64,000 nt of DNA, taken from positions 2,532-66,531 of the forward strand of contig JAGOON010000001.1 in NCBI GenBank assembly GCA_017992505.1, given 5' to 3'. The position numbers and the translations under genes were made by a program. A model generated the notes under the pieces. The model was not told the DNA's origin, did no database searches, and was given only the letters and a program-made list of their open reading frames with translations. This stretch comes from Minisyncoccota bacterium. GTDB lineage: Bacteria > Patescibacteriota > Minisyncoccia > Phycocordibacterales > UBA918. This document shows, piece after piece, positions 8,215-62,171 of the stretch. Every line of letters starts with the position of its first letter. Positions within the stretch are counted from its first letter, which is position 1.

Positions 8215-9798
8215 TTACTCTTCCCCCCTGAGTCGTTTTATCAAGAAATCTTTATCGAGGGTACTTAAAAACCAACCTACTTTTGGACCACTGTCTTTAC
8301 CAAGAAATACTGTGTAGATGGCACCAAAAAATTCTTTTGGTGAAAGCTCCGACTCACTTTTCACTTCGTGAATGAGTTCGTGGAGGATTTGTCCGTCAAT
8401 AGTTTCAAGTAATTCTATTTTGTCTGAAAGGAGTTTAAGCGCTGACTGTTGTACCTCTGTAAGTGACTGAGTTGCCTTGGGAATGTTTTGCTGTAGCGTA
8501 AAGATGAACTTGTCGTCTGCATACTCTTTGAGCCAACGCTTCGCGTACACGACTCGTTCGTCGAGTTCAGCCACATCAATATCAGTGAGTTCAGTCTCTT
8601 TCATTTTTGCTACCTCATCATAGATATCCATATGCGGCATTTGCACCAGAAAAGCTACTTGTGAGAAGCGTGGTAAATATCGTACAGGCAACTCCGCTCG
8701 TTCATCAGGCAAATGGATGAAGTTGAATACTTGTGAATCATCATCACGTACACCGCTCCAATACTTTTCTGCGAGCTTATCGTAGGTATCAAAGAGAACA
8801 GGAATTGCGTCCCCTTCTGGATCAAAATCAAGCTGACGATTGATTGGTGTCTTGAGTAGTAAGAGGCGCAAAATATGTGGTGGCAGAATATCTGTCATTT
8901 CTCGTGCTGAAGCAGCGTTTCCTTTTGAGGAAGACATTTTCTTTCCACCCACCAAGAAGAATTCGTTGAAGACACCGTATGGTGGCTCATGGTCAAAAAT
9001 TTCGCGACAAATCGCTTCAGCTACTTGCCTCGAACCACCCTTGGTGTAGTGGTCTTTTCCGCCCCCTTCGAAGTTCACATTCTGTGCAACAAACTTCGCC
9101 GCCCAATCGAGCTTCCATGGGAACTTGGCATTACCATTGTATGGCGACATGCGACCACTGTGACCACAACCCTTGGCCCACGCGATAGTGTCTGAACTAC
9201 AAGTATAGTCGACAAGCTCTCCATCAAAGCCGGTGATCTTAGTCGCGCTTAGGTTGCCACAATTTTCACAGATAACATTCAATGGATACCAGTCTTCTGG
9301 CTTCTCGCTCTTTGAAATACGAAAATATATATCACGAACAACGGCACGCCGTTCTAATGCCTTTTGAATCATCTCATTCATCGCACCACTGCGATAAAGT
9401 TCGCTCGCTCGATAGACTTCTGCGCCAAAGCCAATTTTCTTGAGCACTGATACATATTCTTGTCCGTAGTATTCAGCAAAATTATCAAATCCTGGTTCTG
9501 GTGACGGAATGTTGCAAAGTGGCACACCCATGTACTGCTCGTACGTCGCGGTATCGAGATAATTTGGAATACCATCCATGGGATCGAAGTCGTTGATCTC
9601 AAACAAAAACTTTACATTGTGACCTCGACTTTTGAGTACATCAGCAACAATGGCGTGCATTGACGCGCTACGCAGTGAACCAACGTGTACTTGTCCTGAA
9701 GCAGTCTTTTCGTCACGAATAACAATTGGTTGTCCAGACGAAATTAGCGACGCGTATCGTCGCTCAACCTCGTCAGCAATAGCATCTGCCCAAAACAT
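8215..9798 (-). CDS. lysK: Lysyl-tRNA synthetase, class I (archaeal type)
   Basis: HIGH-like motif HVGSLRS and KMSSSKGN (class I LysRS-specific KMSKS variant). Zinc knuckle CENCG. Length 527 aa. Confidence 0.75.
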   Translation of the reverse strand: MFWADAIADEVERRYASLISSGQPIVIRDEKTASGQVHVGSLRSASMHAIVADVLKSRGHNVKFLFEINDFDPMDGIPNYLDTATYEQYMGVPLCNIPSPEPGFDNFAEYYGQEYVSVLKKIGFGAEVYRASELYRSGAMNEMIQKALERRAVVRDIYFRISKSEKPEDWYPLNVICENCGNLSATKITGFDGELVDYTCSSDTIAWAKGCGHSGRMSPYNGNAKFPWKLDWAAKFVAQNVNFEGGGKDHYTKGGSRQVAEAICREIFDHEPPYGVFNEFFLVGGKKMSSSKGNAASAREMTDILPPHILRLLLLKTPINRQLDFDPEGDAIPVLFDTYDKLAEKYWSGVRDDDSQVFNFIHLPDERAELPVRYLPRFSQVAFLVQMPHMDIYDEVAKMKETELTDIDVAELDERVVYAKRWLKEYADDKFIFTLQQNIPKATQSLTEVQQSALKLLSDKIELLETIDGQILHELIHEVKSESELSPKEFFGAIYTVFLGKDSGPKVGWFLSTLDKDFLIKRLRGEE

Positions 9799-12595: not shown

Positions 12596-13521
12596 AACGA
12601 ACCAACGGTTGCGGTTGCAGTCGAAGTAGCGGTACTGCTCGCAAGATTAAAGTTTTTGGTATCAACAATAAGTGCGTCAGTGATGATGCGTCGGACTCGC
12701 TCTTCTATTTGTGGTGGTTCAACTGGAGTTACAATCTCACTAGCGACCGCGACATAACGAATCCCACTCACTGGACTAGGAAGAGTGATGTATCCATATT
12801 GCTCTGGTTGGGTCGGTCTGTTCTCGACATACTCCACTCGTCCAAACACCCCTGGATCAATACTTGGCACATGAACCAGATTGCCAACATTGAGTGGTAT
12901 TCCTTGCGGTACGCTGACGCGCGCCACACCACCGCCAAAGCCCTCTAGGGTCGTCATCACATTGGCACCACTAATGTATGCTGTGGCGCTAAATCCTGGA
13001 GTTGTAAAGAGCTCCACAAAAGAATAGTGTGCACTCGTATGCGTCACGATACCAATCACATTGTCTGCACCGATATATACAGGTGCACCCTCTATAATAC
13101 CGTCATCGGAACCACGATCGATTTGCATCAGATCGTAAGGGAGCTCTGTTGGACGCGCAATCACCGCTGCTGCGATACGCTCCTTTCCATCGACAGAAAG
13201 GAGTTGTCGTAACCACATGTTTTCTTCAAAGAGGCGCTGTTGGGTGAGGTCTGTACTCACCGCAATAGCGAGCTCGTTTTCAAGTGACTCGATATCTGTG
13301 ATGAGTTTCTGTTGATCACGAAGAAACATCGGTAAACGATCAGATGATGTGCGAATCCACTCACTGGTGAGATGAACTGGATATAGCGCAATACGTCCAA
13401 CAAGCGTGAACACAAACGGCAACGCAACACCAAGCAAGAGAATGACGATAGCAATAAAAAATACCTGCGTGATACGCTTCTGTTTATTAGTCTTAGAATT
13501 GTGTCGAGAATGAACCTTCAT
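12592..13521 (-). CDS. mreC: Rod shape-determining protein MreC. The ORF extends to 13611; start probably MKVH at 13521
   Basis: N-terminal TM, a coiled coil and a beta-rich periplasmic domain. Position between mreB and mreD. Confidence 0.7.
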   Translation of the reverse strand: MKVHSRHNSKTNKQKRITQVFFIAIVILLLGVALPFVFTLVGRIALYPVHLTSEWIRTSSDRLPMFLRDQQKLITDIESLENELAIAVSTDLTQQRLFEENMWLRQLLSVDGKERIAAAVIARPTELPYDLMQIDRGSDDGIIEGAPVYIGADNVIGIVTHTSAHYSFVELFTTPGFSATAYISGANVMTTLEGFGGGVARVSVPQGIPLNVGNLVHVPSIDPGVFGRVEYVENRPTQPEQYGYITLPSPVSGIRYVAVASEIVTPVEPPQIEERVRRIITDALIVDTKNFNLASSTATSTATATVGSL

Positions 13522-14566
13522 GATCAAGGAGAATTTCTTCGTACGCTTCAAGGTCTTCAACAACGATACCGGCACCGCGAATGACTGCCCGAAGTGGGTC
13601 TGGCACGACAATTACAGGTACCTGGAGAGCATGCTCAAGGAGGGCTGAAAGTCCTGGGATGAGCGCCCCACCCCCTGAGAGGTGGATACCGCGCTGCATC
13701 ACGTCAGCAAGCACTTCAGGCGGTGTAATCTCAAGGGCGGCGCGCACATTCTCTACAATCGTATCAATGTGTCCAGCTACCGCATCGCGCACGTCAGAGT
13801 CGGTAATAACCACCTCGCGAGGTAAACCAGTCACCACATCTCGACCACGAATGACAAAATCCTTACCGCCATTTTGTGAGTTTGAAATGGCGGTAAGTGC
13901 AATCTTTGCATCTTCTGCCGTTTTCTCTCCAACATGCACTTTGAATTGATCACGCACATATGAAGAAATAGCAGCATTGAGATGATCTCCTGCAATACGC
14001 AAGTTTTTTGACACGACGAGTCCATTGAGAGAGATGATGGCGATGTCAGTAGTACCACCACCAATATCAACAATCATACTCCCTACTGATTTTCCAATGG
14101 GAAGCTTAGCGCCGATCGCTGCCGCCATTGGCTCTTCAATCAAAAATACGTCACGTGCTCCAGCATTTTTAGCAGCATCGTGTGCAGCACGCATTTCAAC
14201 GTTGGTGATTCCCGACGGCACACCAATAAGCACTCTAGGAGCAATAAACGTACGTACTTCATTGCGTACTTTACTAATAAGATACGCCAACATCTCTTCA
14301 GTTACTTCAAAATCAGAAATGACTCCATCGACAAGTGGTCTGACAACTTCGATATGCGCTGGCGTTCGACCAAGCATGACCTTGGCTTCATTGCCGACCG
14401 CGACGAGCTGTCCCGTCTTTTTATTAATTGCAACAATGGTTGGTTCGTTAAGTAAAATTCCCTTCCCTTTGACGTAGACGAGTGTATTAGCGGTACCGAG
14501 GTCAATAGCGATATCGGTAGATAAGGCACAAAGCAGCGCGTTTAGTTGTCGCGTAAGAAAGTTCAT
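13493..14566 (-). CDS. mreB: Rod shape-determining actin homologue MreB
   Basis: IDLGTANTLVYVKGKGILLNEPTIVA and DIGGGTTDIAIISL actin-fold motifs. Length 357 aa. Confidence 0.9.
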   Translation of the reverse strand: MNFLTRQLNALLCALSTDIAIDLGTANTLVYVKGKGILLNEPTIVAINKKTGQLVAVGNEAKVMLGRTPAHIEVVRPLVDGVISDFEVTEEMLAYLISKVRNEVRTFIAPRVLIGVPSGITNVEMRAAHDAAKNAGARDVFLIEEPMAAAIGAKLPIGKSVGSMIVDIGGGTTDIAIISLNGLVVSKNLRIAGDHLNAAISSYVRDQFKVHVGEKTAEDAKIALTAISNSQNGGKDFVIRGRDVVTGLPREVVITDSDVRDAVAGHIDTIVENVRAALEITPPEVLADVMQRGIHLSGGGALIPGLSALLEHALQVPVIVVPDPLRAVIRGAGIVVEDLEAYEEILLDHEGSFSTQF

Positions 14567-17550: not shown

Positions 17551-18168
17551 TTAAGCGGGTAATACCAACGCTAGGTGTTCGAGTAAAAACTTATTTGAAG
17601 CACCACGAGTAAGGAGGAGTCTCGTCACATACTCTAGTTCAGACAGTGTTTCCTTGGGAAGTGTAATGGCGGACTCTTTGAGATACTGTATGAGGCCCTT
17701 TTTGATAGCGTTTTGCCAGATATGATCCTTTTGCTTGGTGGCTTGCTCAATCTGCGCCATGCGCTCACCATAGGAAGCATCTTTAAAAGAAGCAAACGCC
17801 TTGTAGTCAACAATCTCACTAACAGTCCCTACTCGTTCAAAACGAGACTCAAGTGTGGGTAAAAAGCTATATCCTTCTGGGATAATGAATACGAACATTG
17901 TCGAGCGTGGTGGTTCTTCGATAATCTTAAGCAACGCTTGCTGCGCCTCTTCAGTCACAAACTCAGTCGCGACAATAATCGTGCGCGTGTCGGTTTCTCC
18001 ATCTGGCCTGCGGTGGGCGTTTATGATGAGTGTGCGGACATCATCAATACCAAACTGCGCAGTTCGATACTGATCAGTTACGGGCACCGCACTATATGCA
18101 TCAATTGTCGCAATGAGTGGAGCTTCTGAAGAAAACAAAACAGCATGATGGGAATTCATGCCGTTCAT
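17551..18168 (-). CDS. holB: DNA polymerase III delta'-like (HolB-like) short clamp-loader subunit
   Basis: LLKIIEEPP motif (the LLKTLEEPP box of clamp-loader subunits). 205 aa, degenerate P-loop. Confidence 0.55.
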   Translation of the reverse strand: MNGMNSHHAVLFSSEAPLIATIDAYSAVPVTDQYRTAQFGIDDVRTLIINAHRRPDGETDTRTIIVATEFVTEEAQQALLKIIEEPPRSTMFVFIIPEGYSFLPTLESRFERVGTVSEIVDYKAFASFKDASYGERMAQIEQATKQKDHIWQNAIKKGLIQYLKESAITLPKETLSELEYVTRLLLTRGASNKFLLEHLALVLPA

Positions 18169-18328: not shown

Positions 18329-19762
18329 CTAACCTTTTTGCAGATCGAGGATATGGCGTATAACTCGTCGCAGATAGTGTTCGAAGGTTTCGCCCTGTTG
18401 ATAGATTATACCTTGCTCGTAGCGCCATCCGTTCATATAGTCAGTAATACTTTGTTTGATTTCCTGCGTCGCCCCCTCAAAACGCCCAGCAAGTAGGAGT
18501 GGGATATGAAGCGGTGCAATCTTTTTAAAGAGTGGGTGCTCGTGACCTTTAGGACCAGTACCGAAAAGACCGCTCTTTTTAAATATAGACCATTCTGAGA
18601 GTAACTGTTCAAGACCATCATCAACTTCCTTATTAAAAAGTGGATCACCTGACGAAATCGCGGAAGCTTTGAGGGATGCAGTCGCCTGCAAATCTTCGAG
18701 AGTATGTGGCTTCTTTAAATCTGCAAGTGACGCGAAGCCAGCTGGTTGAGCTGGCGCTGGGGCCGGAGCAGCAGACGGAGCTGCTTCTTCATGCGACCAT
18801 GAAGGAGACGCCACTGTTGCAGGTTGTGGGAGAATATCTTTTTCACTTGGTTTATAGGCAGGAACTGGCTGAAACGGCTCACCAGTAGGAACGGCAGCGA
18901 CTCTATGCACTGGTTCGGCTTGAAGAACTGGAGTTTCTTCAACTGATATATTTACTTCCTGTACTGCTGGGGTGGTTTTTGGGCTCACAGCGACTACATT
19001 CACTGTACCGCCACTCGTCTGGTGGGTTTCAAGGGCCTTGAGTACCGATGCGTACGACTCCTCAAGACGCTTCATTGCTGAGGCAGCCGAAGAACCGCTA
19101 TTGAGTTTCTTCATCGCATCGAGGAGTGCTCCCATGTATTCACGCCCAACTTCATTATCAATATCGACAAGATTCACTGGGTTACCGACTTTTTCGTTTA
19201 CAGAGGCTTTAATCTCTCGAATACGAGTAAGGTACTCTCCAACATCAGCTACTGGAGTCACTGGCTCTGGAACAGCCGATACTACAGGAACTGGTTCAGG
19301 CACCTGTTGTGGAATTGGTGCCTCGACCACTGGTGCAGGCTGAACAACGGGCTCTGGGGTGGCTTGGTGTGGTGTCCAAGCTGGCTGTGCACTAAAGACT
19401 GGAATCGAAGAAACGGGCACCTGTTGTGGCGCACTTTGTGCTACGGGTGCAGGCGTGAAAGTCGGAGCAACACGAAACTTTCCGATAGTCGGTTGAGGTG
19501 GAAGTGTTTGGGTTGATTGAGGACTAATTTTTCTTGGTGCTGGGGTTACCCGATATGCGACTATTTTTTGTTCAAGCGCGAGACGAACAGTCTGATCCTT
19601 TCCGCCGTTTGTATACAAAAAAACCAAGTCACGGAGTTCGCTTTTTTGTGGAGCCCCAATTTCACTTGTTCGGATAGACGCAAGTAAATGCATCACTCCT
19701 GCTTGTGACTCAAAATCAAAGACGGCGTTCCCATTTATGGGCAAAGAACCAACACTCACCAT
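18329..19762 (-). CDS. Hypothetical Pro/Ala/Val/Gln-rich protein (third gene of the ATPase module)
   Basis: 477 aa. Three predicted globular segments separated by PxxP/PAPV low-complexity linkers. No signal peptide or TM seen. Confidence 0.5.
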   Translation of the reverse strand: MVSVGSLPINGNAVFDFESQAGVMHLLASIRTSEIGAPQKSELRDLVFLYTNGGKDQTVRLALEQKIVAYRVTPAPRKISPQSTQTLPPQPTIGKFRVAPTFTPAPVAQSAPQQVPVSSIPVFSAQPAWTPHQATPEPVVQPAPVVEAPIPQQVPEPVPVVSAVPEPVTPVADVGEYLTRIREIKASVNEKVGNPVNLVDIDNEVGREYMGALLDAMKKLNSGSSAASAMKRLEESYASVLKALETHQTSGGTVNVVAVSPKTTPAVQEVNISVEETPVLQAEPVHRVAAVPTGEPFQPVPAYKPSEKDILPQPATVASPSWSHEEAAPSAAPAPAPAQPAGFASLADLKKPHTLEDLQATASLKASAISSGDPLFNKEVDDGLEQLLSEWSIFKKSGLFGTGPKGHEHPLFKKIAPLHIPLLLAGRFEGATQEIKQSITDYMNGWRYEQGIIYQQGETFEHYLRRVIRHILDLQKG

Positions 19763-19830: not shown

Positions 19831-21357
19831 CTACGCAGCCATTGTCTCGTCATGTTGCAATAATGTTTCAAGTTCGGCACGAATGAAGAGCTCACCAAAT
19901 GTTATCGTCGGATGAGCATGGGTGATGTCTATCATTGAATTCAGTGAATCAATCCAATCAAGATAAACTTCATACTTAATATCGCGCTCTTGCAGTTTTG
20001 CTCTAACAACATCACGTGACTGACTATCAAAGTCGACCACTTCTTTTACAGTCATACTTCGGAGAAAATCATAGAAGGCGCTTTTGTATGCAAAACCAAA
20101 GGCAGAGTCAAATTTTGATGGCGCTTCGATTCCCTGAATCTCACGTCGCACCATTGCCTCAAACTGCGCTACCGATGGAAAGTTGTATGCAACGAACTTT
20201 CCATAACGAGGGATTGCCAAGACTTTTTCGATTACCCCACCCCATTCGCCCTTATAAGCTCTTTCAACGCGCTCGATTGAGGGTTTGGTTGGTGAATTAT
20301 GAATTGCCTTCGGTCGAGGCGGGTTGCTTGCTATGAGCTCTGGCTTTTTGACGAGTGTAATTGGAACAATTTTCTCTTCAGTTTCTGCTTCCTTTGCAAC
20401 TTCAATAGCACCAGTTGGTTGTCTTTTTATATCAATGTTAACGAGCGGAATTTCTTCGTCCTTTTCAAAGAAACCCCCAAGACCCTTATCGAGCTGAATG
20501 AGATTATCTGATATTTCATCTACTGCATCTTCAAAATGCTCGGACGTTAGTTCAGTGACTTTATCATCCCTATCGAGATACTCCCTGATACTTTTAAAAG
20601 TCGTTCGCGCACGGTCAGTGGTGATGACGAGTTGTTTGTAGTAGTGTTGCCCTACATTCAAAACAGCATCCGGAGATACTACCTCGTTAATTTCTTGGTA
20701 CTTTGCGAGAAGTGCTTCTGCTTGCTCAATGAGCATTTCAGTTTTTTCCTCAAGTGTATTCAATTTACTTTTCTCAACAGTGGCACTCTCATCAACAACC
20801 AACTCCTTATCAGGCTCAACTTGAGGACCGGCAACTATTTCTTCAATTTCTTTTATAACAATCTCTTCTTCCGCAACCATTACTTGTTCCACTTCTGGTT
20901 TTACAAAGTCTTGGGTCATACTGTCTTCAGGAACCAACTCAACGGGGACTGATTCGGAGACAGTTTTTATCGGTAAGGTGTCGACCACAATCGGTGTGAC
21001 TTCTGGCATTACCACCACCTCATTTTCTACGACCGCCTCAATGGATTCAATACCATCAAGAATATCAATGAGCTCGTTGTAATGGGTTTGAATTTCGTTC
21101 GCAAGCGTTTCATCTACATCACCCCCTTCATCTTTAAGTAAAAAGGCAGTATTGAGTTTTTCTTTCAGCGTCTCGTAGAGATGAGACACATTTTCTAATT
21201 GGTTGTGTGATGACTCACCCGAGTGAGCCTTGATGTACTCTATGAGTTCAGTATACGCATCTTCCGTGTGGCGCGAAAAAGCCTGTAGGCCTTCCCTAGT
21301 ATTGATATCAATATCTTCTTGCACCTCTTCGGCGGTGGTCATTCGTTCCATGCTCAT
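19831..21357 (-). CDS. Hypothetical highly acidic (Glu/Asp/Val-rich) protein, start overlapping the upstream ATPase stop
   Basis: 508 aa. Its ATG overlaps the stop of the upstream ATPase gene (ATGA). The acidic coiled N-terminal two-thirds are followed by a conserved-looking C-terminal domain (EWGGVIEKVLAIPRYGKFVAYNFPS...). Confidence 0.5.
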   Translation of the reverse strand: MSMERMTTAEEVQEDIDINTREGLQAFSRHTEDAYTELIEYIKAHSGESSHNQLENVSHLYETLKEKLNTAFLLKDEGGDVDETLANEIQTHYNELIDILDGIESIEAVVENEVVVMPEVTPIVVDTLPIKTVSESVPVELVPEDSMTQDFVKPEVEQVMVAEEEIVIKEIEEIVAGPQVEPDKELVVDESATVEKSKLNTLEEKTEMLIEQAEALLAKYQEINEVVSPDAVLNVGQHYYKQLVITTDRARTTFKSIREYLDRDDKVTELTSEHFEDAVDEISDNLIQLDKGLGGFFEKDEEIPLVNIDIKRQPTGAIEVAKEAETEEKIVPITLVKKPELIASNPPRPKAIHNSPTKPSIERVERAYKGEWGGVIEKVLAIPRYGKFVAYNFPSVAQFEAMVRREIQGIEAPSKFDSAFGFAYKSAFYDFLRSMTVKEVVDFDSQSRDVVRAKLQERDIKYEVYLDWIDSLNSMIDITHAHPTITFGELFIRAELETLLQHDETMAA

Positions 21358-24188
21358 ATCATATCAGGCATTGCCGAGATTGGTGGCGGTGGCGGTGGAA
21401 CGGGCTTTTGGTACCGTACACGTATTTCCTCTTCGATTTCGGCTCGTGCTCGCCCATAGCGAGCGTAACTTTGTTCAATCAACATTGCTACTCGTTCTGG
21501 ATTTGATGCTTGTGGCGGTAATGTTGAGAGACTAAATGGCGGTGTTGGCGTACCGTTGGCCAAAATGCGCATGTACGCACTGCGATTTGGAACATTCATA
21601 AGATCGCTTGCACTAAAGGTTGGTGCGTATTGTTGCTCCAAGAACTGCGCATCCTCAGGGCCCACCCTGAAAGCTGCAAGTGAGCCGACATTCCCGAAAA
21701 CTGCGTCTTTTATGTCTGGTTGAAGCTGAGCGATAAATTGGTGCGCCATAGTGAGTCCAAGTTTGTATTTACGAGCTTCTGAAAGAATCGCCGAGATAGA
21801 ATCCGTAGAAATATTCTGAAATTCGTCCATATGAAGGTAGAATGGTGGATATTTTTTGAGGGGGTCATCAACGCGCGAAAGCGCAGCCATGAGGAGTTTC
21901 CCTACAAAAATCATACCGATAAGATTGGCATTAATTTCACCAATACGACCTTTGGCAAGATTTACCAGCAAAATCTTTCGCTCATCCATAAGAAGGCGGA
22001 AATTGAAAGCGCTACGCTGCTGTCCGATAATTGGTCGCATATAGTCATTTGCGGTGAAGACGTCAAATTTTGAAACGATGTATGGCACGATGTTTTCGAG
22101 CGCAGCTTCCCCACCTGCCTTTGTTGCAATCTCTCGCCAGAACTGGACGACGACTGGGTTCGTTGCTTTTTCGAGTTTCTGTCGTCGATAGCGAGCATCG
22201 ACCATTACTCTTGAAATATCCATGAGTGTATTCCCACTTTCTGGATCTTCCATTACAAGCATAGTGGCATTGCGGAAATACTGCTCAAACATTGGACCCA
22301 TAGATTCTGGATTGCCACCGTAGAGCTTTTTAAAAATAGAAAAGAGTTCGTTGACCACAAACGTCTTTTGTTCTGGCTTTGAGTAATCAAACTCGAGCAT
22401 ATTGAGGCCAATGACTCGATCAAGACGAGCGGGATCAAAATAGATGACGTCCTGCTCTCGGTGTGGCGGAACGGCAGCGAGGACATCTTCGATGTCTGTG
22501 CCATGCGGATCAATCATACACACACCGTCACCACGCATAATATCTTGAACAATCATGTTCTTCATGAGTGTTGTCTTACCTGTCCCTGTCTGACCAATGA
22601 TATAAAAATGACGCAGACGGTCTTCAGCGGTGATGAAGATTTTTCTTTCCGTACCACGGTGAGCATTAATGCCAAGAACAGTACCTTCGATAGGCATAGT
22701 GGTGGGCGCTGGAGCTGTTTGTGCGTATGACTGCTTAAACTGAGGGGCCGCAGCGCCAGAAGCAGCATTTTGAGGGAAATGCACCAATGTCGCTAACTCT
22801 CGAATTGAGAGTGGCACAATCCCTTTCACAGATAACTCACGAAATGAAAATGCTCGAAGCGCCCGCTTCTGCGCCAGACCAGTGAGACGATTGAACACAA
22901 AGGCATTTCCATCAACTGAATTAAAAGCTAAAAATGTCGATTCTATTTCTGACATTATCTGTTTAGCCCGCACATCTGTCTTTGCCGAGACCACCATACG
23001 GATGTTTGTTTCAACAATATCGGTAGTGATTTTCTTGCGGAAGAGTTCGATGGAACGTGTGTCAATTTCTTTTGGTGGTACCTGCACCTCTTCCTTTTTC
23101 TTATTGGTGAAAAAGAGGTCAGTGACAGTATTTTTAAATTCACCAATCATTGAACTCCGTGCAATTGCGTCCGCTGGTTTCGTGCCTTTTTCAACTTCTT
23201 TAATGATAGATTCGTATGTACTGCGATACTTGTCATGTGGGTACCGCACAATAAACTGAAGCGCCGCTCCTCCACCTTCACGTTCGATTTTTGAGAAGGC
23301 GTTTAAAATAACTGAGAATGGGTCAGCAGTGAATTCATCATGTGGTTTCAAAGGATAGATGGGGTGCTTTCTGAGACTTACTTCAGAAACGAGTGCCACT
23401 CCACCATCGGCAAAAATATTATAATCATGCGGTTGAATTGTCAGTACTGCGTGTGGAAAGAGTGAGAGTGTCTGCTTTTCAAAAAGCGTCGCAAATTCAT
23501 TTGGCACTGCAACGTAGTACACGATATCGTCACTATTATCAGCAACCGCTACCTCGATGACGAAGTGATTCCCCGCTTGAACTGAACCAATCGTTCGAAG
23601 ACCCGCCAACAGTTGCTCCATAACGCCGACCAGTTGCGCAAGTTGTTGTGCATTTCCATCTGGAGTACTTTGTGACGGAAGTATCACTTCAAAGAGCGTC
23701 ATATGAAGGATGTGCCATGGTGGCAAGCCTTCGCGCAAATCCGCTATCTGTGCACCAGAGCGAATTTGTTCAATAAGTTGACGATGTACTTCGTCGACAA
23801 TGTAGGTGTTATTTGTTTGTTCGAGTACAGTGAGAGCATTTTTGATTCCCTTCTCGTATGCCAACTGCATAATATCCTCAACAGGATTATGTGACACTAC
23901 CACCGCTTCAACGGAACGATTGAGTTCGTCACCACTAAGTTCATAGTTTTTATCGAGCACCATTTTGGGGGTAAAGCTCATGTAGTTTTTTATCTCCTGT
24001 TTACCAAGCGTTTCGATGTCGGTGCGGTCAATGGAGGGCGTACGATCCAGCATCTGACGCTCCCGCTGTGCGATACGCGCACGCAAAAACTCAAGCTCTT
24101 CTTGAGGAGAGGAAAACTGCCTTGGCACACCTTCAATCATGCGTTCATTGTACACGCAAAAGGCGCGCCAAAGGCGCGCCTTAACCAC
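21354..24188 (-). CDS. Soluble TraG/TraD/VirD4-family (TraG-D_C-like) P-loop ATPase with a ~480-aa N-terminal domain of unknown function. Alternative start Met17 at 24140
   Basis: Walker A GQTGTGKTT and Walker B LHMDEFQN, then RKYKLGLTMAHQFIAQLQ...GNVGSLAAFRVGPEDAQ matching the VirD4/TraD C-terminal signature. No N-terminal TM helices. Poly-Pro C-terminus. Confidence 0.55.
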   Translation of the reverse strand: MVKARLWRAFCVYNERMIEGVPRQFSSPQEELEFLRARIAQRERQMLDRTPSIDRTDIETLGKQEIKNYMSFTPKMVLDKNYELSGDELNRSVEAVVVSHNPVEDIMQLAYEKGIKNALTVLEQTNNTYIVDEVHRQLIEQIRSGAQIADLREGLPPWHILHMTLFEVILPSQSTPDGNAQQLAQLVGVMEQLLAGLRTIGSVQAGNHFVIEVAVADNSDDIVYYVAVPNEFATLFEKQTLSLFPHAVLTIQPHDYNIFADGGVALVSEVSLRKHPIYPLKPHDEFTADPFSVILNAFSKIEREGGGAALQFIVRYPHDKYRSTYESIIKEVEKGTKPADAIARSSMIGEFKNTVTDLFFTNKKKEEVQVPPKEIDTRSIELFRKKITTDIVETNIRMVVSAKTDVRAKQIMSEIESTFLAFNSVDGNAFVFNRLTGLAQKRALRAFSFRELSVKGIVPLSIRELATLVHFPQNAASGAAAPQFKQSYAQTAPAPTTMPIEGTVLGINAHRGTERKIFITAEDRLRHFYIIGQTGTGKTTLMKNMIVQDIMRGDGVCMIDPHGTDIEDVLAAVPPHREQDVIYFDPARLDRVIGLNMLEFDYSKPEQKTFVVNELFSIFKKLYGGNPESMGPMFEQYFRNATMLVMEDPESGNTLMDISRVMVDARYRRQKLEKATNPVVVQFWREIATKAGGEAALENIVPYIVSKFDVFTANDYMRPIIGQQRSAFNFRLLMDERKILLVNLAKGRIGEINANLIGMIFVGKLLMAALSRVDDPLKKYPPFYLHMDEFQNISTDSISAILSEARKYKLGLTMAHQFIAQLQPDIKDAVFGNVGSLAAFRVGPEDAQFLEQQYAPTFSASDLMNVPNRSAYMRILANGTPTPPFSLSTLPPQASNPERVAMLIEQSYARYGRARAEIEEEIRVRYQKPVPPPPPPISAMPDMI
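24147..24152 (-). promoter_or_regulatory. -10 hexamer TACAAT 6 nt upstream of the Met17 ATG of the ATPase gene
   Basis: Minus strand reads GGCGCGCCttttgcgtgTACAATgaacgcATG. Confidence 0.4.
24160..24182. promoter_or_regulatory. Perfect GC palindrome GGCGCGCC-AAA-GGCGCGCC (candidate operator) abutting the ATPase-module promoter
   Basis: AAGGCGCGCCAAAGGCGCGCCTT. Each half is itself palindromic. It is located in the -35 region of the putative promoter. Confidence 0.45.
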
Positions 24189-24274: not shown

Positions 24275-25309
24275 TTATTTTTTGCTCAAGACTGCTCGTT
24301 TGTATACATCTAGGTGTTCGAGCGCCGTCCCGGTTCCTTTTACTACACAAAAGAGTGCTTGGTCGGCCACAACCGCCTTCACCCCCAAACGTCGGCGAAT
24401 GAGCTCTGGAAAATTACGGAGCTGAGACGTACCACCAGTCATGATAATACCCCCATCGATAATGTCTGCAGCAAGCTCTGGTGGAGTCTCTTGAAAAACA
24501 TCTCGTATTGCCTTTATCATTTCCTTCAATTCTTTTCCAATCGCACGTACAACTTCATTACTCTTGATTTCGGTTGTACGAGGCAAACCAGAAATCATGT
24601 CCCTTCCTTTAATTTCCATCACCAACTCTTCTTCAAGTGGAAGTGCTGAACCAACTTTAATTTTTATATCCTCAGCCGTCTTTTCACCAATCGCGAGATT
24701 TCGAGTCTTCTTCACATAGTCCACAATCGACATATCGATACGGTTGCCCGCGCACTTAACTGAGTTCGAGGCTACGATACCCCCAAGCGAAATTACTGCC
24801 ACATCGATAGTACCGCCACCGATATCAACAATCATATGTCCTTGCGCTTCATATATAGGTACACCTGCACCAATAGCAGCGAGAATTGGTTCTTTCACCA
24901 CAAACGCATTCTTGGCGCCCGCCCGCATGGCAGCTTCTACTACCGCCCGACGCTCAGTTGAAGTCACGCCCGCTGGCACCGACACCATCACATCTGGCCT
25001 AAAGAGGCTGTACTTACTCATGGATTTTTTGAGGAAGTATCGAAGCATCGCTTCAGTAACGCGATAATCAGCAATGACGCCGTCACGCATTGGACGATAG
25101 GCTCGAATACTATCGGGAGTACGTCCAATCATTTGCTTGGCTTCGGTTCCAACAGCAAGCACCTCGTTGTCCTCAGAAATAGCAACAACTGACGGCTCAT
25201 TAAGTACAATTCCTTGTCCTGGAATAAACACCAAAATACTGGTAGTACCAAGGTCGATGCCGATTTTAGGAGTTAAGCTACCAAACATGTTAGGCACATA
25301 TACTACCAC
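24275..25309 (-). CDS. Second MreB-family actin homologue (Mbl/MreBH-like paralogue)
   Basis: IGIDLGTTSILVFIPGQGIVLNEPSVVAI and VDIGGGTIDVAVISLGG. Length 344 aa. A distinct paralogue from the mreB at 13493-14566. Confidence 0.8.
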   Translation of the reverse strand: MVVYVPNMFGSLTPKIGIDLGTTSILVFIPGQGIVLNEPSVVAISEDNEVLAVGTEAKQMIGRTPDSIRAYRPMRDGVIADYRVTEAMLRYFLKKSMSKYSLFRPDVMVSVPAGVTSTERRAVVEAAMRAGAKNAFVVKEPILAAIGAGVPIYEAQGHMIVDIGGGTIDVAVISLGGIVASNSVKCAGNRIDMSIVDYVKKTRNLAIGEKTAEDIKIKVGSALPLEEELVMEIKGRDMISGLPRTTEIKSNEVVRAIGKELKEMIKAIRDVFQETPPELAADIIDGGIIMTGGTSQLRNFPELIRRRLGVKAVVADQALFCVVKGTGTALEHLDVYKRAVLSKK

Positions 25310-25368: not shown

Positions 25369-26868
25369 ATGCAAGATATAGGAACCCGCATTGCGGACGT
25401 ACGAGAAACCCTCGGTCTTACTCAATCTGATTTAGCTAAAAAATTAAAAACTACCCAAAGTGCCATCGCTCGCATAGAGAGCGGAAAGCAAAATGTTAGT
25501 GCAGATATGCTTAAACGCATCGGCAAGGCGCTGGGGAAAAATCTCATCACCCTCTCCCCAGGTACGGTAAATGTTCAAGTAAACGGCGGAAAGAAGCTTT
25601 CCGGTACCATACAAACCAACACCTCTAAAAACGGTGCAGTAGGACTCCTTTGCGCTTCTCTTCTTAATAAAGGCACAACTACCCTTCATGGTATGCCACG
25701 TATCGAAGAGGTGCACCGTCTCATTGAAGTACTGCAAAGTATCGGCGTGAGGGTTGAGTGGATCAAAAACTCCGTTCGCATTACCCCTCCTGAGAAAATC
25801 AATCTTGCAAAAATTGATGTTGAAGCGGCCCGCCGTACTCGTAGTATCGTAATGTTCATCGGCCCCTTAATTCACCGTATGAACACCTTCGCACTTCCGC
25901 AGTCTGGCGGTTGTAAACTTGGTAGTCGAACAGTGCGACCGCACTTTTATGCACTCGAAGAATTCGGCGTTTATATCAATACCACCGACAGCGCCTATGA
26001 GGTGTCAGTAAAGCCCAAGCAACCTAAAGAAATTATCCTCTATGAATCAGGTGACACCGTGACCGAAAACGCACTCATGGCAGCGGCACTCTTTAAGGGC
26101 ACTACCACTATCAAGTATTGCTCAGCCAACTACATGGTGCAAGAAATGTGTGTATTTCTTCAGCATCTTGGTGTTCAGATTGAAGGAATTGGTACCACTA
26201 CACTCACTATCACGGGTTGTAAAGAAATCAAGCAGGATGTTGAGTACCACCTTGCGGAGGACCCAACCGATAGTATGTTTTTCTTGGCTACTGCAATTGT
26301 CACCAATTCTTCAATTACTATCACACGCTGTCCGATTGAGTTCCTTGAACTTGAGCTCCTCACACTCAAAAAGATGGGCTTCAAGTACACGCAGTCAAAG
26401 CCATACCTTGGTAAGAATGGTCAGGTGAAGTTGGTTGATATTGTAACCAAATCATCAAAGATGGTCGCAGTTTCCGAAAAAATCCACTCCCGTCCCTACC
26501 CTGGCATCAACGCCGATAACCTCCCTTTCTTTGCGGTCATCGCGACGCAAGTGAGCGGACAAACCCTTATTCACGACTGGATGTATGAAAAGCGAGCAAT
26601 TTACTTTACCGAACTTGATAAACTTGGTGGTGATACCGTCCTTGCTGACCCGCACCGTATCTACATTACTGGTCCAAGCAAGCTCCGCGCTAACGAACTC
26701 GTCTGTCCGCCCGCACTTCGTCCAGCGACTATTCTTTTGATTGCAATGCTCGGCGCCGAGGGGCGATCAATTCTTCGCAACATCTACAGCATTAATCGCG
26801 GCTACGAAAAGCTCGTCGAGCGACTTGAATCACTTGGCGCCAGCATCAGCTACCTTGACGAGTTCTAA
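25369..26868 (+). CDS. murA: UDP-N-acetylglucosamine 1-carboxyvinyltransferase MurA with an N-terminal XRE-type HTH domain
   Basis: The N-terminal ~65 aa are a Cro/C1-type HTH (LGLTQSDLAKKLKTTQSAIARIESGK). The rest is full MurA with the catalytic-Cys loop PQSGGCKLGSRTVRPH and C-terminal SINRGYEKLVERLESLGA. Confidence 0.8.
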   Translation: MQDIGTRIADVRETLGLTQSDLAKKLKTTQSAIARIESGKQNVSADMLKRIGKALGKNLITLSPGTVNVQVNGGKKLSGTIQTNTSKNGAVGLLCASLLNKGTTTLHGMPRIEEVHRLIEVLQSIGVRVEWIKNSVRITPPEKINLAKIDVEAARRTRSIVMFIGPLIHRMNTFALPQSGGCKLGSRTVRPHFYALEEFGVYINTTDSAYEVSVKPKQPKEIILYESGDTVTENALMAAALFKGTTTIKYCSANYMVQEMCVFLQHLGVQIEGIGTTTLTITGCKEIKQDVEYHLAEDPTDSMFFLATAIVTNSSITITRCPIEFLELELLTLKKMGFKYTQSKPYLGKNGQVKLVDIVTKSSKMVAVSEKIHSRPYPGINADNLPFFAVIATQVSGQTLIHDWMYEKRAIYFTELDKLGGDTVLADPHRIYITGPSKLRANELVCPPALRPATILLIAMLGAEGRSILRNIYSINRGYEKLVERLESLGASISYLDEF

Positions 26869-26924: not shown

Positions 26925-27197
26925 ATGAGCGCAAATAATAAACAACCCGTGACTATCCGGCTTAACCCAAAGCTGTACGAGCATCTCAAAACACTTGCCA
27001 AGGAAGGAGTCACTGTTTCTTACCTCATAAATCAGGCAGTTCAGGAGTTCCTAGATGGAAAAACAACAGAATCCGCAAAAGACAGGTCTGTTGTTGCAGA
27101 AGAAGTCGAGGCTGTGATTCCAGTGCTGAAGCTAATCGGAAAACCCATTCATGTCGATTTGTTTTTTGAATTAATCGAGACACAACAGGGTCGCTAG
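26925..27197 (+). CDS. Ribbon-helix-helix (CopG/Arc/MetJ-like) small DNA-binding protein
   Basis: PVTIRLNPKLYEHLKTLAKEGVTVSYLINQAVQEFL has the RHH beta-alpha-alpha pattern. Confidence 0.45.
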   Translation: MSANNKQPVTIRLNPKLYEHLKTLAKEGVTVSYLINQAVQEFLDGKTTESAKDRSVVAEEVEAVIPVLKLIGKPIHVDLFFELIETQQGR

Positions 27198-27210: not shown

Positions 27211-27242
27211 AAAACCCCGGTTCTCACGAGCCAGGGTTTTTT
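27211..27242 (+). terminator. Terminator after the RHH gene
   Basis: AAAACCCCGG-ttctcacgag-CCAGGGTTTTTT. Confidence 0.6.
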
Positions 27243-27244
27243 GC

Positions 27245-27250
27245 TATAAT
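27245..27250 (+). promoter_or_regulatory. TATAAT -10 box 7 nt upstream of the priA-like ATG (27258)
   Basis: ggttttttgcTATAATgccacccATG. Confidence 0.5.
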
Positions 27251-27257
27251 GCCACCC

Positions 27258-29150
27258 ATGTACGTCATTCAGGTTATTCCCCTCATCCGCGGCACCCAAC
27301 TTGAATCACTCTCTTATTTCTCAAGCATTACCTATAAGCCAGGGACTTTTCTCGAAGTGCCCATTCGTGGCAAAAACCAACGCGCGATAGTAACCAGTAG
27401 TGAACCAGTGAGTGCCACCAAAACAGCTTTAAAAGCAGCCACCTTCTCACTTCGTAAACTTCCCTCCCAACCAAATGCGACAAGTGTGCCCAGTGTTATT
27501 TATAAAACGGCCGAAACACTCGCAAAGCGCTATCCTGCTTCTATTGGATCCATTCTTTTTAACCTTCTCCCAAACGACATTCGAAACGGGACTCGTCTCT
27601 TTAAAAACACTACGACTATTATTCACGAAGAGGAGATAACACCGCAGGTTTTTCAAGCGCGTCTTGATGAACGTTTTCTCAGTTACCAAAGTCTAGTGCG
27701 AAGTAGTTTTGCAAAAAAAGGCTCAGTACTCTTTATTGTGCCAACTAATGCTGATATAAAATTCGCGGCCCAAAAACTAAGTCATGGCATTGAAGATCGA
27801 GTAGTTATCTTAAGTAATTCAACGAGCAAGAAAAAGACCGAAGTAATGATTCAAGCGCTTGAAGACACGATATACTCAAAACTAATCATTACCACTCCTG
27901 CCCACGCTTATACTGGACGACCTGATATTACCAGTATCGTCATTGAACAATCAGCGAATGCTCACTACGTCGATAGAGTACGGCCATATATCGATCATCG
28001 CGATGCGCTTATAGCCTATGCAAAACACGCTGGTGCCTGTGTGATACTTGGAGATACTGTTGTGCGTACCGAAGATGAAGCTAAGCGACGCGATGATATG
28101 TACCTCACTTACGGCGAAGACATTAAGCGGCTTGTGTTTCCTGCACCCCTCACCGTCATCACACAAACCGATAAGCCAAAGGTTGAAATGCCATTTCAGC
28201 TTTTTTCGCCAAGCCTTATTAAAAATATAACCACAACAATCGAAGGTAACGGTCATGTGTTTCTTTATTCTGCACGACGTGGACTGGCACCTGTTGTCGC
28301 GTGTATTGACTGCGGACACATCTTTCGCTGTCCCGATTCACACACCCCTTATTCATTGGTGCGAACCATGAAGAACGACGTTGAAGAGCGTTGGTTTATT
28401 TCGAGCACATCTGGTCGACGTGTTCGTGCAGCTGACACTTGTGACAACTGTGGTTCGTGGCGTTTACGCGAACGCGGTATTGGCATCCAGCAAGTATATG
28501 ATGAATGGAAAGAAAAAGTTCCTCACATCGACATCACTATTCTCGACCATACCGTCGCCCCAACGCCACTTAAGGCCCAGAAAATTGTTGATGGATTTTT
28601 TTCCAAAAAATCTGGAGTACTGCTTGGTACACAAATTGCACTTCCATACCTCAATCGCGGTGTAGAGCTTAGTGCAATTATTTCACTTGATGCCGCCCGC
28701 TCAACGCCAACCTGGCGCGCTGATGAATCGCTCTTCCGACTACTCATCAAGCTTCGGGAATGCACCGCTCGTGAAGTACTCGTACAAACCCGCAGTGAAC
28801 CAGACCCTCTTGTGGGGTATGCAGCCCGAGGCGCCGTCGAGCGTTTCTTTGATGATGAAATCGCACTTCGCAAGCAACTTAAATACCCTCCCTTTAGCAC
28901 TTTCATCCTGCTCACCTGGTCGGGAGCTCCTGAAGTTGTCGCTGAAGCAGAGAAGGTAATCAAAAACACGATTGATTCTCCGATTGCGCAGTACTACACG
29001 AACCCACACTCGAGTAAGGAGCAATGTCATCGCCACGCGCTTCTACGAATTGATATAAACGACAGCATAACCTATGAACAAATAATTGAGCGAATCAAGA
29101 AAGTACCTCCGTATGTAAAGATAGAAATCAATCCGGAGCGAATAGTGTAG
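27258..29150 (+). CDS. priA: Primosomal protein N' (PriA) homologue with degenerate helicase motifs
   Basis: Matches PriA in the region after Walker A (KKGSVLFIVPTNADIKFAAQKL), the Zn-finger region (CIDCG...CDNCGS) and the C-terminal domain (VLLGTQIALPYLNRGVELSAII...KYPPFSTFILLT). It has no GxGKT P-loop, and DEAH is replaced by IEQS. Confidence 0.6.
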   Translation: MYVIQVIPLIRGTQLESLSYFSSITYKPGTFLEVPIRGKNQRAIVTSSEPVSATKTALKAATFSLRKLPSQPNATSVPSVIYKTAETLAKRYPASIGSILFNLLPNDIRNGTRLFKNTTTIIHEEEITPQVFQARLDERFLSYQSLVRSSFAKKGSVLFIVPTNADIKFAAQKLSHGIEDRVVILSNSTSKKKTEVMIQALEDTIYSKLIITTPAHAYTGRPDITSIVIEQSANAHYVDRVRPYIDHRDALIAYAKHAGACVILGDTVVRTEDEAKRRDDMYLTYGEDIKRLVFPAPLTVITQTDKPKVEMPFQLFSPSLIKNITTTIEGNGHVFLYSARRGLAPVVACIDCGHIFRCPDSHTPYSLVRTMKNDVEERWFISSTSGRRVRAADTCDNCGSWRLRERGIGIQQVYDEWKEKVPHIDITILDHTVAPTPLKAQKIVDGFFSKKSGVLLGTQIALPYLNRGVELSAIISLDAARSTPTWRADESLFRLLIKLRECTAREVLVQTRSEPDPLVGYAARGAVERFFDDEIALRKQLKYPPFSTFILLTWSGAPEVVAEAEKVIKNTIDSPIAQYYTNPHSSKEQCHRHALLRIDINDSITYEQIIERIKKVPPYVKIEINPERIV

Positions 29151-29160
29151 TCTTGAAAGA

Positions 29161-29195
29161 GGCTGGATTTGCTTCGCAAATCCAGCCTCTTTTGC
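29161..29195 (+). terminator. Terminator after the priA-like gene
   Basis: AGGCTGGATTT-gcttcgc-AAATCCAGCCT followed by CTTTT. Confidence 0.65.
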
Positions 29196-29207
29196 TATAT
29201 TAAGCGC

Positions 29208-29744
29208 ATGGCAAAACTCGTCGCCCAAAACCACCCTGCGCTCCATACCATTTCGGAAGAAATCACTTCGGAGGAATTTTCTAATGGGACTGTAGCAAAA
29301 ATTCTCAAAGATATGAGGAAAGCTATAAAGGAATATAGTGTTGATGGGTTTTCGGCGGTTGCAATAGCTGCTCCTCAAATTGGGGTTGCTAAGCGAATGT
29401 TTCTGATTGAAGACCAAAGTGGTTCCGAAGAGGAACGTTTTCCGACTATTATTGCAATTAATCCTCATATCGTTAAAACTTCAAAGAGGACTCATGTTGT
29501 TGGTGAAGGTTGTCTATCTGTTCCCAAACTCTACGGTGTCGTAAAGCGCCACACAAACGTCACCCTCGAAGCGCTCGATGAAAATGGCAAGTCTTTTACT
29601 CGTGGTGCGGGTGGACTACTCGCTCAGATTATCCAGCACGAGTGTGACCACCTTGATGGGACACTCTTCATTGACCGTGCTGAAGATGCTTGGCCAGTTG
29701 AGAAGGAGCAAGCAAAACGTAAAGATGATAAAAGTCATGAGTAA
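29208..29744 (+). CDS. def: Peptide deformylase
   Basis: GVAKRMF / EGCLSVP / QHECDHL motifs, the three PDF signatures. Confidence 0.85.
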   Translation: MAKLVAQNHPALHTISEEITSEEFSNGTVAKILKDMRKAIKEYSVDGFSAVAIAAPQIGVAKRMFLIEDQSGSEEERFPTIIAINPHIVKTSKRTHVVGEGCLSVPKLYGVVKRHTNVTLEALDENGKSFTRGAGGLLAQIIQHECDHLDGTLFIDRAEDAWPVEKEQAKRKDDKSHE

Positions 29745-30612
29745 CCAGAAACTTAAGATTGCGTTTTTTGGTGGTGAACCTCTTGGACTCCCTGCTCTTA
29801 AGGCTCTTGTACATGCTGACCTTATTCCAACACTTGTTGTTTGTAATCCTGACCGCCAGGCTGGCCGTGGGCAGAAAGTGACCCCTTCCCTTATTAAGAC
29901 GTGGGCGACTGAACAGTCAATTGAGGTGTTTCAACCAACCACCTACAAAGAGCGAAACAATCTAACGAGACTGACTTCAGAAGAGTGGGATTTGTTTGTA
30001 GTCGTTGCATACAATTTTATTTTGCCAGAGTGGTTTTTAAAATTACCTAAGCACGGTGTTGTAAATGTTCACCCATCTCTCCTTCCCAAACTCCGTGGAG
30101 CGAGCCCCATTCGCACTGCTATTCTTAAAAATCTTCGCGAAGAGATTGGTGTCAGTATCATGCTAATGGACAAGGAGATGGATCATGGGCCGATTCTTAC
30201 CCAAACACCCCTCACCCTAAACGAATGGCCAATTGATGGCCCCCTCCTCGATGATATGTTGGCGCAAATTGGTGGTGAAATGCTTGCACGGACAATCCCC
30301 CGCTTTATAGCTGGAGAAATAACCCCTGTAGAGCAAGACCATTTGACTGCTACATACACCAAAAAATTTGAAAAGGCCGATGCCGAACTTCACCTCGATC
30401 CGCAGAACCTACCAACTGGTAACTTAGCTTTTGAAATACTTTGTAAAATAAAAGCCCTTGCTGGCATGTCCGATTGTTTCTTCTTTGACAATGGACTCCG
30501 TATTAAAATAAAAGCAGCCAACCTCAAAGAGGACGGTCAACTTCAGATTCTTCGTGTAATTCCAGAAGGCAAAAAAGAGGTTGATTTTGAAACCTATCTC
30601 CGTTCTCGCTAG
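29737..30612 (+). CDS. fmt: Methionyl-tRNA formyltransferase
   Basis: N-terminal formyltransferase fold (KIAFFGGEPLGLPALKAL...VVCNPDRQAGRG) plus a C-terminal domain. Its ATG overlaps the def stop (ATGAGTAA). Confidence 0.85.
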   Translation: MSNQKLKIAFFGGEPLGLPALKALVHADLIPTLVVCNPDRQAGRGQKVTPSLIKTWATEQSIEVFQPTTYKERNNLTRLTSEEWDLFVVVAYNFILPEWFLKLPKHGVVNVHPSLLPKLRGASPIRTAILKNLREEIGVSIMLMDKEMDHGPILTQTPLTLNEWPIDGPLLDDMLAQIGGEMLARTIPRFIAGEITPVEQDHLTATYTKKFEKADAELHLDPQNLPTGNLAFEILCKIKALAGMSDCFFFDNGLRIKIKAANLKEDGQLQILRVIPEGKKEVDFETYLRSR

Positions 30613-54879: not shown

Positions 54880-54909
54880 AAAAAGCCTCTCCTAAGAGAG
54901 GCTTTTTAT
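54879..54909. terminator. Bidirectional terminator
   Basis: AAAAAAGCCTCTC-ctaa-GAGAGGCTTTTTAT. Confidence 0.7.
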
Positions 54910-62136: not shown

Positions 62137-62171
62137 AATGCCCCCAACTATACAGAAAAACCTTAAAAAGT

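Follow-up and report, generated by a model that had tools for sequence, protein, structure and literature searches.

A PriA homologue conserved across Paceibacteria has lost its ATP motifs and is a likely pseudohelicase

PriA is generally presented as a helicase with motifs that are 'well conserved among bacteria', and Deinococcus-Thermus stands out as the exception. In Deinococcus radiodurans, where the Walker A lysine is replaced by arginine, PriA showed no ATPase or helicase activity and bound single-stranded DNA (ssDNA), forks and DnaB (Lopper, Boone & Morrow 2015, PMC4504706), and neither a priB nor a dnaT homologue has been reported in this species (PMC4504706). In E. coli, the K230R substitution alone abolishes the ATPase of PriA, and the altered protein can nonetheless assemble primosomes and keep cells viable. 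For PriA-PriB restart in vivo, the ATPase and helicase activity of PriA is dispensable (PMC10175261). Here we describe an open reading frame (ORF) at positions 27258-29150 on the plus strand of a 64-kb chromosome segment of Patescibacteria (candidate phyla radiation), with a G+C content of approximately 45% (the whole segment is hereafter the window). The ORF encodes a PriA homologue, as was evident from sequence, fold and gene position, and the gene is the priA orthologue of a Paceibacteria (Parcubacteria, candidate phyla radiation) genome. Overall, the protein is most likely a lineage-wide and unusually thorough case of the known PriA pseudohelicase class and not a new kind of system.

At this locus, the ORF list of the window showed a single plus-strand ORF with two in-frame ATG codons at its beginning (27249 and 27258). 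A 100% identical database copy (P0001, from a metagenome-assembled genome (MAG) of Candidatus Pacebacteria) and more than 100 close homologues begin at ATG 27258, in line with the coordinates of the initial annotation, and ATG 27249 was unused by homologues. The PriA homology proposed in the initial annotation was borne out. The protein matched the NCBIfam model TIGR00595 (priA) with an E-value of 1.4e-40 and 139.4 bits, with residues 146-621 on model positions 14-497 of 509. A phmmer search against the PDB matched PriA chains only (E ~1e-15), BLASTP against E. coli PriA gave an E-value of 3e-18, and a profile built from 40 diverse family members matched Klebsiella pneumoniae PriA (4NL4) with an E-value of 6.6e-69 and placed the family Arg opposite the Lys of GSGKT. 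The AlphaFold2 model of the 630-aa protein had a pLDDT of 85 and a pTM of 0.84, and its best nine Foldseek matches in the PDB were all PriA with TM scores of 0.60-0.75. The PriA fold aligned along the full length of the model. The top match was fork-bound E. coli PriA (8FAK, 8fak_H; TM 0.75, E=3.6e-35), and PriA with a deleted winged-helix (WH) domain (6DCR, the second-best match) and apo PriA (4NL4) reached a TM of 0.67 each. After the PriA chains, Foldseek listed the superfamily 2 (SF2) helicases Mfd, Brr2 and DbpA at a TM of 0.27-0.41. The fold match showed a bilobed RecA-like SF2 core. The predicted model appeared nearer to fork-bound PriA (8FAK) than to apo PriA, which would carry small weight as to conformation. 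The coding sequence and the slots and domains of the protein are as follows.

27258..29150, plus strand: priA-like coding sequence, 630 aa plus stop, with the second ATG as start
27258..27587, plus strand: 3' DNA-binding domain (3'BD; aa 1-110), from a weak PF17764 match (E=0.08), the column profile and the fold match
27588..27644, plus strand: short unstructured linker (aa 111-129), in place of the WH domain and the Q-motif helix
27648..27686, plus strand: former Walker A (motif I) slot (aa 131-143, VFQARLDERFLSY), without a glycine-rich loop and with Arg139 at E. coli K230
27717..27758, plus strand: motif Ia region (aa 154-167, KGSVLFIVPTNAD), a retained DNA-contact motif with Ser156 and Pro162 conserved
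27936..27959, plus strand: former motif II (DExH) slot (aa 227-234), IVIEQSAN against IVIDEEHD in E. coli
28044..28067, plus strand: former motif III slot (aa 263-270), ILGDTVVR against ILGSATPA in E. coli
28293..28466, plus strand: cysteine-rich region (CRR; aa 346-403), with outer CxxC pairs kept and inner pairs degenerate
28620..28634, plus strand: motif V remnant (aa 455-459, LLGTQ), with Gly457 and Thr458 conserved
28737..28772, plus strand: former motif VI slot (aa 494-505, RLLIKLRECTAR), with a 5-residue deletion against QVAGRAGRAG
28890..29147, plus strand: C-terminal domain (CTD; aa 545-630), ending in INPERIV (VDPIEG in E. coli), from the TIGR00595 alignment and the fold match

The loss of the Walker A and DExH motifs, which had been noticed in the initial annotation, was found by three alignment methods and by structure prediction. 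The BLASTP, MAFFT and HMMER alignments agreed on the register at every motif slot, and a mis-registration of the motifs was rejected on this agreement. At motif I, E. coli GVTGSGKTEVY was opposed by QARLDERFLSY in the query, where the P-loop glycines were gone and Arg139 stood at the K230 slot. The DEEH slot read EQSA; the loss of the DEAH box had been correctly called before, from the letters IEQS, which are one residue out of register. The earlier list of losses was right but incomplete, as motifs III (GSATP to GDTVV) and VI (remnant KL-----RECT), the Q-motif and the WH domain were gone as well. In addition, neither an [AG]xxxxGK[ST] nor a DExH pattern matched anywhere in the 630-aa protein. 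Other NTPases of the window, taken as a control, had canonical Walker A motifs (AGPGTGKT, GQTGTGKT and GPNGAGKS), and because these textbook P-loops are retained the P-loop loss is not a genome-wide oddity. For the WH domain and Q-motif helix, E. coli PriA residues ~105-221 had only ~22 aligned partners in the query, and the AlphaFold model showed no secondary structure at aa 110-129. The WH domain of E. coli PriA helps to bind forks, and the N-terminal region varies among PriAs, so that a WH domain is not universal. Overall, the protein is very probably ATPase-dead, as the initial annotation had suggested.

A search of 1.84 billion cluster representatives, clustered at 50% identity, showed 762 clusters at E≤1e-30 with intact ORFs of 625-650 aa, and the best 150 were nearly all 620-660 aa long. 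Motif columns were scored on 145 full-length representatives of these 50%-identity clusters. GxGK[ST] was found at the motif I slot in none of the 145, and the orthologues therefore share the degenerate motifs, the point that the initial annotation had put forward for checking. The K230 slot held Arg in 144/145 representatives with an acidic residue just before it in 125/145, and the acidic residues at query positions 138 and 230 were almost invariant. Motif II read E/D-x-E-S/N in most representatives; the His of DExH was outside the five commonest residues at its slot and was present in few (at least in P0142, which reads EREH). The 5-residue deletion in motif VI and the loss of the WH domain were seen in 145/145. 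Across the family, 46 positions were ≥90% conserved. The members carried the names Parcubacteria, Pacebacteria/Paceibacterota, Kaiserbacteria, Nomurabacteria and Yonathbacteria, and the subfamily of the query was present in at least 134 species genomes (Paceibacteria, Kaiserbacteria and Nomurabacteria), a count from a scan with a closer alignment which covers the single-zinc subfamily only. The median identity across 80 species was 52% for the priA-like gene, 50% for fmt, 45% for hpf and 67% for def; dN was 0.15-0.26 and dS was saturated, so that no dN/dS ratio can be expressed. The priA-like gene is under purifying selection as strong as that on fmt, and the motif loss is a conserved lineage trait and not a one-off.

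The elements that contact DNA in PriA were largely identifiable. PF17764 was precomputed on several family members, and Tyr20, which corresponds to Tyr18 of E. coli, the 3'-end stacking residue, was present in 144/145 relatives; the position of E. coli Asp17 was Ser/Thr in the query family. In E. coli PriA, Tyr18 makes a stacking contact with the sugar at the end of the nascent leading strand. Motifs Ia, Ib, IV and V of SF1/SF2 helicases are nucleic-acid contacts. The segment following the former P-loop (KKGSVLFIVPTNADIKF) aligned to PriA motif Ia (GKQALVMVPEIGLTPQ), in agreement with the initial annotation, and further DNA-contact residues were kept in motif Ib (Thr213) and in motif IV (Arg340-x-Gly342, of RRG). 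At the C-terminus, the AlphaFold model showed a beta-alpha-beta unit at aa 547-624, and the terminal motif xDPxxI was common to the query and the PriAs of E. coli, Bacillus and Tsukamurella; Arg697 of K. pneumoniae PriA, which binds the SSB tail, was not reliably mappable as the CTD alignment was too loose. The domain order of 3'BD, two RecA-like lobes, CRR and CTD was retained.

In the CRR, the query had five of the eight cysteines, namely one unpaired inner Cys and the two outer pairs, C349-I-D-C352 and C395-D-N-C398-G-S-W401. At the inner pairs the query has C358-P-D-S361 and S382-S-T-S385; the initial annotation had recognised the degenerate CPDS pair and had counted it as the only one, whereas SSTS is a second lost pair. 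A four-CxxC, two-zinc region was thus absent from the query, and all eight cysteines were found in 119/145 relatives. The outer four were present in 145/145. The inner pairs were gone from a clade of 15 representative clusters, the query among them, and at least nine other scattered lineages had lost them in whole or in part. Because the cysteines are retained and lost together (CC....CC against CCCCCCCC), the two zinc sites would consist of the outer and the inner pairs, respectively, and the subclade of the query is predicted to bind one zinc instead of two, since each zinc takes four ligands. The most conserved patch of the family was C349-x-D351-C352...C395-xx-C398-G-S-W401, with the four cysteines and Trp401 in 145/145 and Asp351 in 143/145. 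Its columns align with D438, S481, T482 and H483 of E. coli PriA, which form the surface where PriB docks after fork binding, and the inner Cys pairs frame a part of the CRR that has been linked to strand separation in the E. coli protein (PMC10175261).

Comparison with the described PriAs showed both likeness and difference. The initial annotation had regarded an ATPase-dead PriA as an unusual restart configuration; it is not without parallel, as the PriA pseudohelicase of D. radiodurans is a precedent (PMC4504706) and the PriA of Tsukamurella is likewise motif-less. The query and the Deinococcus-Thermus PriAs both have the Walker A lysine replaced by Arg and match motif II poorly, and no PriB or DnaT was seen in the 64-kb window, similar to D. 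radiodurans with no priB or dnaT reported. In contrast to Deinococcus PriA, the whole glycine-rich P-loop is erased here and not the lysine alone, and the Q-motif, motifs III and VI, the WH domain and, in the subclade, one zinc site are lost as well. The phylum is also a different one (Patescibacteria), and the comparison was made with the published description of Deinococcus PriA; a tblastn search of a plasmid collection with E. coli PriA gave no Deinococcus-Thermus record and found Tsukamurella and Bacillus loci. With the canonical PriAs of E. coli and K. pneumoniae (4NL4, 6DGD and 8FAK), to which its identity is 21%, the query agrees in fold and in domain order, including the place of the CRR within lobe 2, and in the 3'-end Tyr, the outer CxxC pairs and motifs Ia, Ib, IV and V; the gene order is that of Bacillus. 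Unlike them, the query family has no ATP motifs and no WH domain, keeps 4-5 of the eight zinc cysteines and is ~100 residues shorter. The E. coli K230R and K230A proteins would be functional analogues, as primosome assembly, viability and DnaB loading all persist with a PriA that is ATPase-dead, and WH-deletion PriA 6DCR resembles the query as the second-best structural match; the E. coli variants were made in the laboratory from an otherwise intact helicase with PriB and DnaT as its partners, whereas the state found here is natural and long fixed, in a lineage whose 64-kb window showed neither partner.

Tsukamurella tyrosinosolvens PriA (WP_068739079.1, 663 aa, 'primosomal protein N'') was also without GxGKT and DExH. 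As in the query, motifs III, V and VI are degenerate and the N-terminal region is shortened in this actinobacterial PriA of the PRK14873 type; it differs in having all eight CRR cysteines, and its P-loop slot reads GEDWAARL. BLASTP of the query gave E-values of 1e-26 with Bacillus PriA, 3e-18 with E. coli PriA and 1e-10 with Tsukamurella PriA, and the eight-cysteine relative P0139 had no BLASTP match to Tsukamurella PriA. The PRK14873 models scored 33-48 bits on the query against cut-offs of 812-980, which places the query outside that family. As the query is closer to the canonical PriAs, the degenerate PriAs of Paceibacteria and Actinobacteria are not specially related, and the degeneration in Paceibacteria was probably independent of the actinobacterial one. 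PriA of Mycobacterium tuberculosis is flagged in UniProt as probably without helicase activity. Literature searches found no statement on the motifs of mycobacterial PriA and nothing relevant on PriA in Patescibacteria, the candidate phyla radiation or Parcubacteria. The Tsukamurella PriA locus (NZ_LR134460.1, 2940-4931) is labelled 'plasmid 18' and carries gmk-rpoZ-coaBC-metK-priA, and it looks like a chromosome fragment.

Overall, the protein is likely to be a PriA pseudohelicase which keeps the PriA fold, would not bind or hydrolyse ATP and would therefore neither translocate nor unwind, and which would act as a motor-less scaffold for fork recognition and primosome assembly. We infer the loss of ATPase from the data on E. 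coli K230R and K230A and on D. radiodurans PriA; that the protein binds forks and recruits a helicase is proposed from the parallel with D. radiodurans PriA and with ATPase-dead E. coli PriA, which assembles primosomes. In the proposed mechanism, the 3'-end-binding domain together with motifs Ia, Ib, IV and V would recognise an abandoned fork or D-loop, the CRR with one outer zinc site and the CTD would present a docking surface, and this surface would recruit the replicative helicase DnaB directly or through a lineage-specific adaptor. A PriA may contact DnaB directly in settings that lack PriB and DnaT, D. radiodurans being one. Pfam scans of essentially all ORFs of the 64-kb window showed no PriB, DnaT, DnaB, DnaC, DnaI, DciA, DnaD or SSB, and the DnaG primase was the only primosome component found in the window. 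More speculatively, the pocket that once held the nucleotide may now be occupied by the conserved Arg139 and acidic residues, and a partner may dock at the Trp401 knuckle.

An extended form of this proposal, put forward tentatively and short of being probable, is that the whole class Paceibacteria restarts replication with a nucleotide-free, conformationally fixed fork-sensor PriA which would have arisen independently of those in Deinococcus-Thermus and Actinobacteria. The Arg139/acidic network would occupy the ATP site, the outer knuckle (CxDC...CxxCGSW) would recruit a lineage adaptor or DnaB, and the inner zinc site, as part of the helicase wedge, would be dispensable, which would account for its repeated loss. 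If true, three independent origins would indicate that the essential ancestral job of PriA is scaffolding and not unwinding.

Several points weigh against the reading as a motor-less restart scaffold. The TIGR00595 score of the ORF (139.4 bits) missed the curated cut-off of 230.35 bits, and all PRK05580 sub-models were far below their own cut-offs for the 630-aa ORF. The NCBI annotation of the protein is hypothetical protein only, a label which follows from a TIGR00595 score of 139 bits under the curated 230-bit cut-off; the JGI label is primosomal protein N'. The WH domain between 3'BD and helicase core is missing, and fork recognition may differ accordingly from that of E. coli. The ATPase-dead state is a prediction from sequence. 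Finally, DnaB, SSB, DciA and DnaD were all missing from the window, which as 64 kb of a ~1-Mb genome says little. Some of these points would also fit a PriA-derived DNA binder that has been repurposed outside restart, for instance to regulate by binding specific DNA structures or to assist recombination, in a lineage that restarts forks otherwise or not at all. Such a role would be consistent with the score under the family cut-off, with the loss of the WH domain, the Q-motif and all ATP motifs, with the repeated loss of the inner zinc site and with residues that are newly invariant relative to canonical PriA (Trp401, Arg139, Arg148 and Pro243). We consider it unlikely, as the full PriA domain order, the priA-def-fmt position and the 3'-end stacking Tyr are retained, and ATPase-dead PriAs, both that of D. 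radiodurans and the E. coli mutants, keep restart-type activities.

The pseudohelicase scaffold was further weighed against three readings of lower probability. Thousands of weaker PriA matches of unassignable origin in the representative search leave room for a canonical PriA elsewhere in the genome, with the present copy as an accessory, regulatory or dominant-negative paralogue. This is improbable in view of the ancestral priA-def-fmt slot occupied in ~75/80 species and of the JGI annotation, which gives this protein as primosomal protein N' for these genomes; most bacteria have one copy of PriA, and Paceibacteria genomes of ~1 Mb seldom retain paralogues. A non-canonical NTPase, in which Arg139 and the acidic residues 138 and 230 have taken over phosphate and metal binding, would fit the near invariance of these residues, a sign that the former active-site region is under constraint. 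It ranks slightly lower again and is very improbable, since the glycine-rich loop that wraps the phosphates and the Q-motif are absent, the arginine-finger segment of motif VI is deleted and motif III is changed, K230R kills the ATPase of E. coli PriA, and D. radiodurans PriA, which has Arg there, is without measurable ATPase. The chance that the gene is decaying, a pseudogene in progress in a reduced genome, is close to nil. The loss of catalytic motifs in a small-genome lineage is what decay would predict, and a link between motif loss and genome reduction, as suggested in the initial annotation, is plausible; decay was rejected on the conservation data, namely intact ORFs of full length in 762 clusters (50% identity) and in no fewer than 134 species genomes, conservation equal to that of fmt, dN far below a saturated dS and the 46 positions with ≥90% conservation.

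A PriA that is much more thoroughly disarmed has become fixed in a large radiation abundant in the environment (762 clusters and no fewer than 134 species genomes), which strengthens the view that fork recognition and primosome nucleation, and not unwinding, are the indispensable functions of PriA. As a natural minimal PriA with no WH domain, no motor and one zinc site, the protein would be useful for structural and mechanistic work, and its invariant CxDC...CxxCGSW knuckle is a candidate docking surface for a partner in a restart pathway that lacks PriB and DnaT. A dedicated profile model would mend the 'hypothetical' annotation in thousands of MAGs.

The genomic setting was examined in the window and in 80 related species genomes. 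Pfam scans of the window showed housekeeping genes, including mraZ, mraW, genes for penicillin-binding proteins (PBPs), two mreB, mreC, frr and greA, and further several aminoacyl-tRNA synthetase genes, fpg, udg, the gene of an AddA-like helicase-nuclease, rpoD and dnaG. The priA-like gene was upstream of def-fmt in 74-76/80 of the related species genomes, as in the window, and the order mreB / HTH-murA / priA / def / fmt / hpf was kept in ~75/80. In Bacillus velezensis, the order is coaBC-priA-def-fmt-rsmB. As the priA-def-fmt order is common to the related genomes and Bacillus, the ORF occupies the ancestral priA slot. The features flanking the gene are as follows.

27221..27250, plus strand: promoter-like TTCTCA-18-TATAAT with an extended -10 TG, ending 8 nt before ATG 27258
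29169..29744, plus strand: def (peptide deformylase), immediately 3' of priA within the conserved priA-def-fmt
29737..30612, plus strand: fmt (methionyl-tRNA formyltransferase), with the start inferred at MSNQKLKIAFFG

The promoter-like site is a weak consensus match only, with 1 match found against 1.0 expected by chance. No Shine-Dalgarno sequence was found between this site and the priA ATG (27219-27258), and the priA transcript may have little or no leader. A terminator-like hairpin with a T-run was seen at 27219-27242 on the plus strand, just 5' of priA. The mechanically called fmt ORF (ATG 29578) overlaps def by 167 nt (29578-29744, plus strand); the homology to fmt begins at ~aa 54 (MSNQKLKIAFFG), so that the true start is probably 29737, with an 8-nt overlap with the def stop.

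Upstream of priA, at 25369-26868 on the plus strand, a MurA-type enolpyruvyl transferase (EPSP_synthase fold) has at its N-terminus a helix-turn-helix of the XRE type (HTH; aa 8-59), and this HTH-murA was found full-length upstream of priA in 76/80 related genomes with a median identity of 76%. Between HTH-murA and priA, a 90-aa ribbon-helix-helix (RHH_3) ORF was identified at 26925-27197 (plus strand). It had a tblastn match in 0/80 related loci, where murA and priA are almost adjacent, and has the appearance of an insertion specific to this strain, perhaps of an orphan antitoxin gene or a CopG-like one.

A 944-aa protein at 21354-24188 (minus strand) has a HerA/TrwB-like P-loop (GQTGTGKT, aa 532) and an N-terminal ResIII-like fragment with DEVH at aa 132 and no Walker A of its own. 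It recurs near priA in 51/80 related loci. Proteins of 508 and 477 aa at 19831-21357 and 18329-19762 (both minus strand), downstream of the 944-aa protein, had no Pfam match. A 205-aa protein at 17551-18168 (minus strand) matched only the C-terminal half of the DNA_pol3_delta2 profile and had no P-loop, and it may be a minimal clamp-loader delta' subunit. An AddA-like fusion of UvrD helicase and PD-(D/E)XK nuclease with an intact Walker A (AGPGTGKT) and a dnaG-rpoD pair were located at 54906-57902 and 60736-63971 (both minus strand).

The lysyl-tRNA synthetase at 8215-9798 (minus strand) is of class I (PF01921, archaeal type), which is uncommon in bacteria. Finally, two full-length MreB paralogues were encoded at 13493-14566 and 24275-25309 (both minus strand), and the cell-shape set was rich for a small genome, with two MreB, MreC, two PBP2-type transpeptidases and an L,D-transpeptidase.

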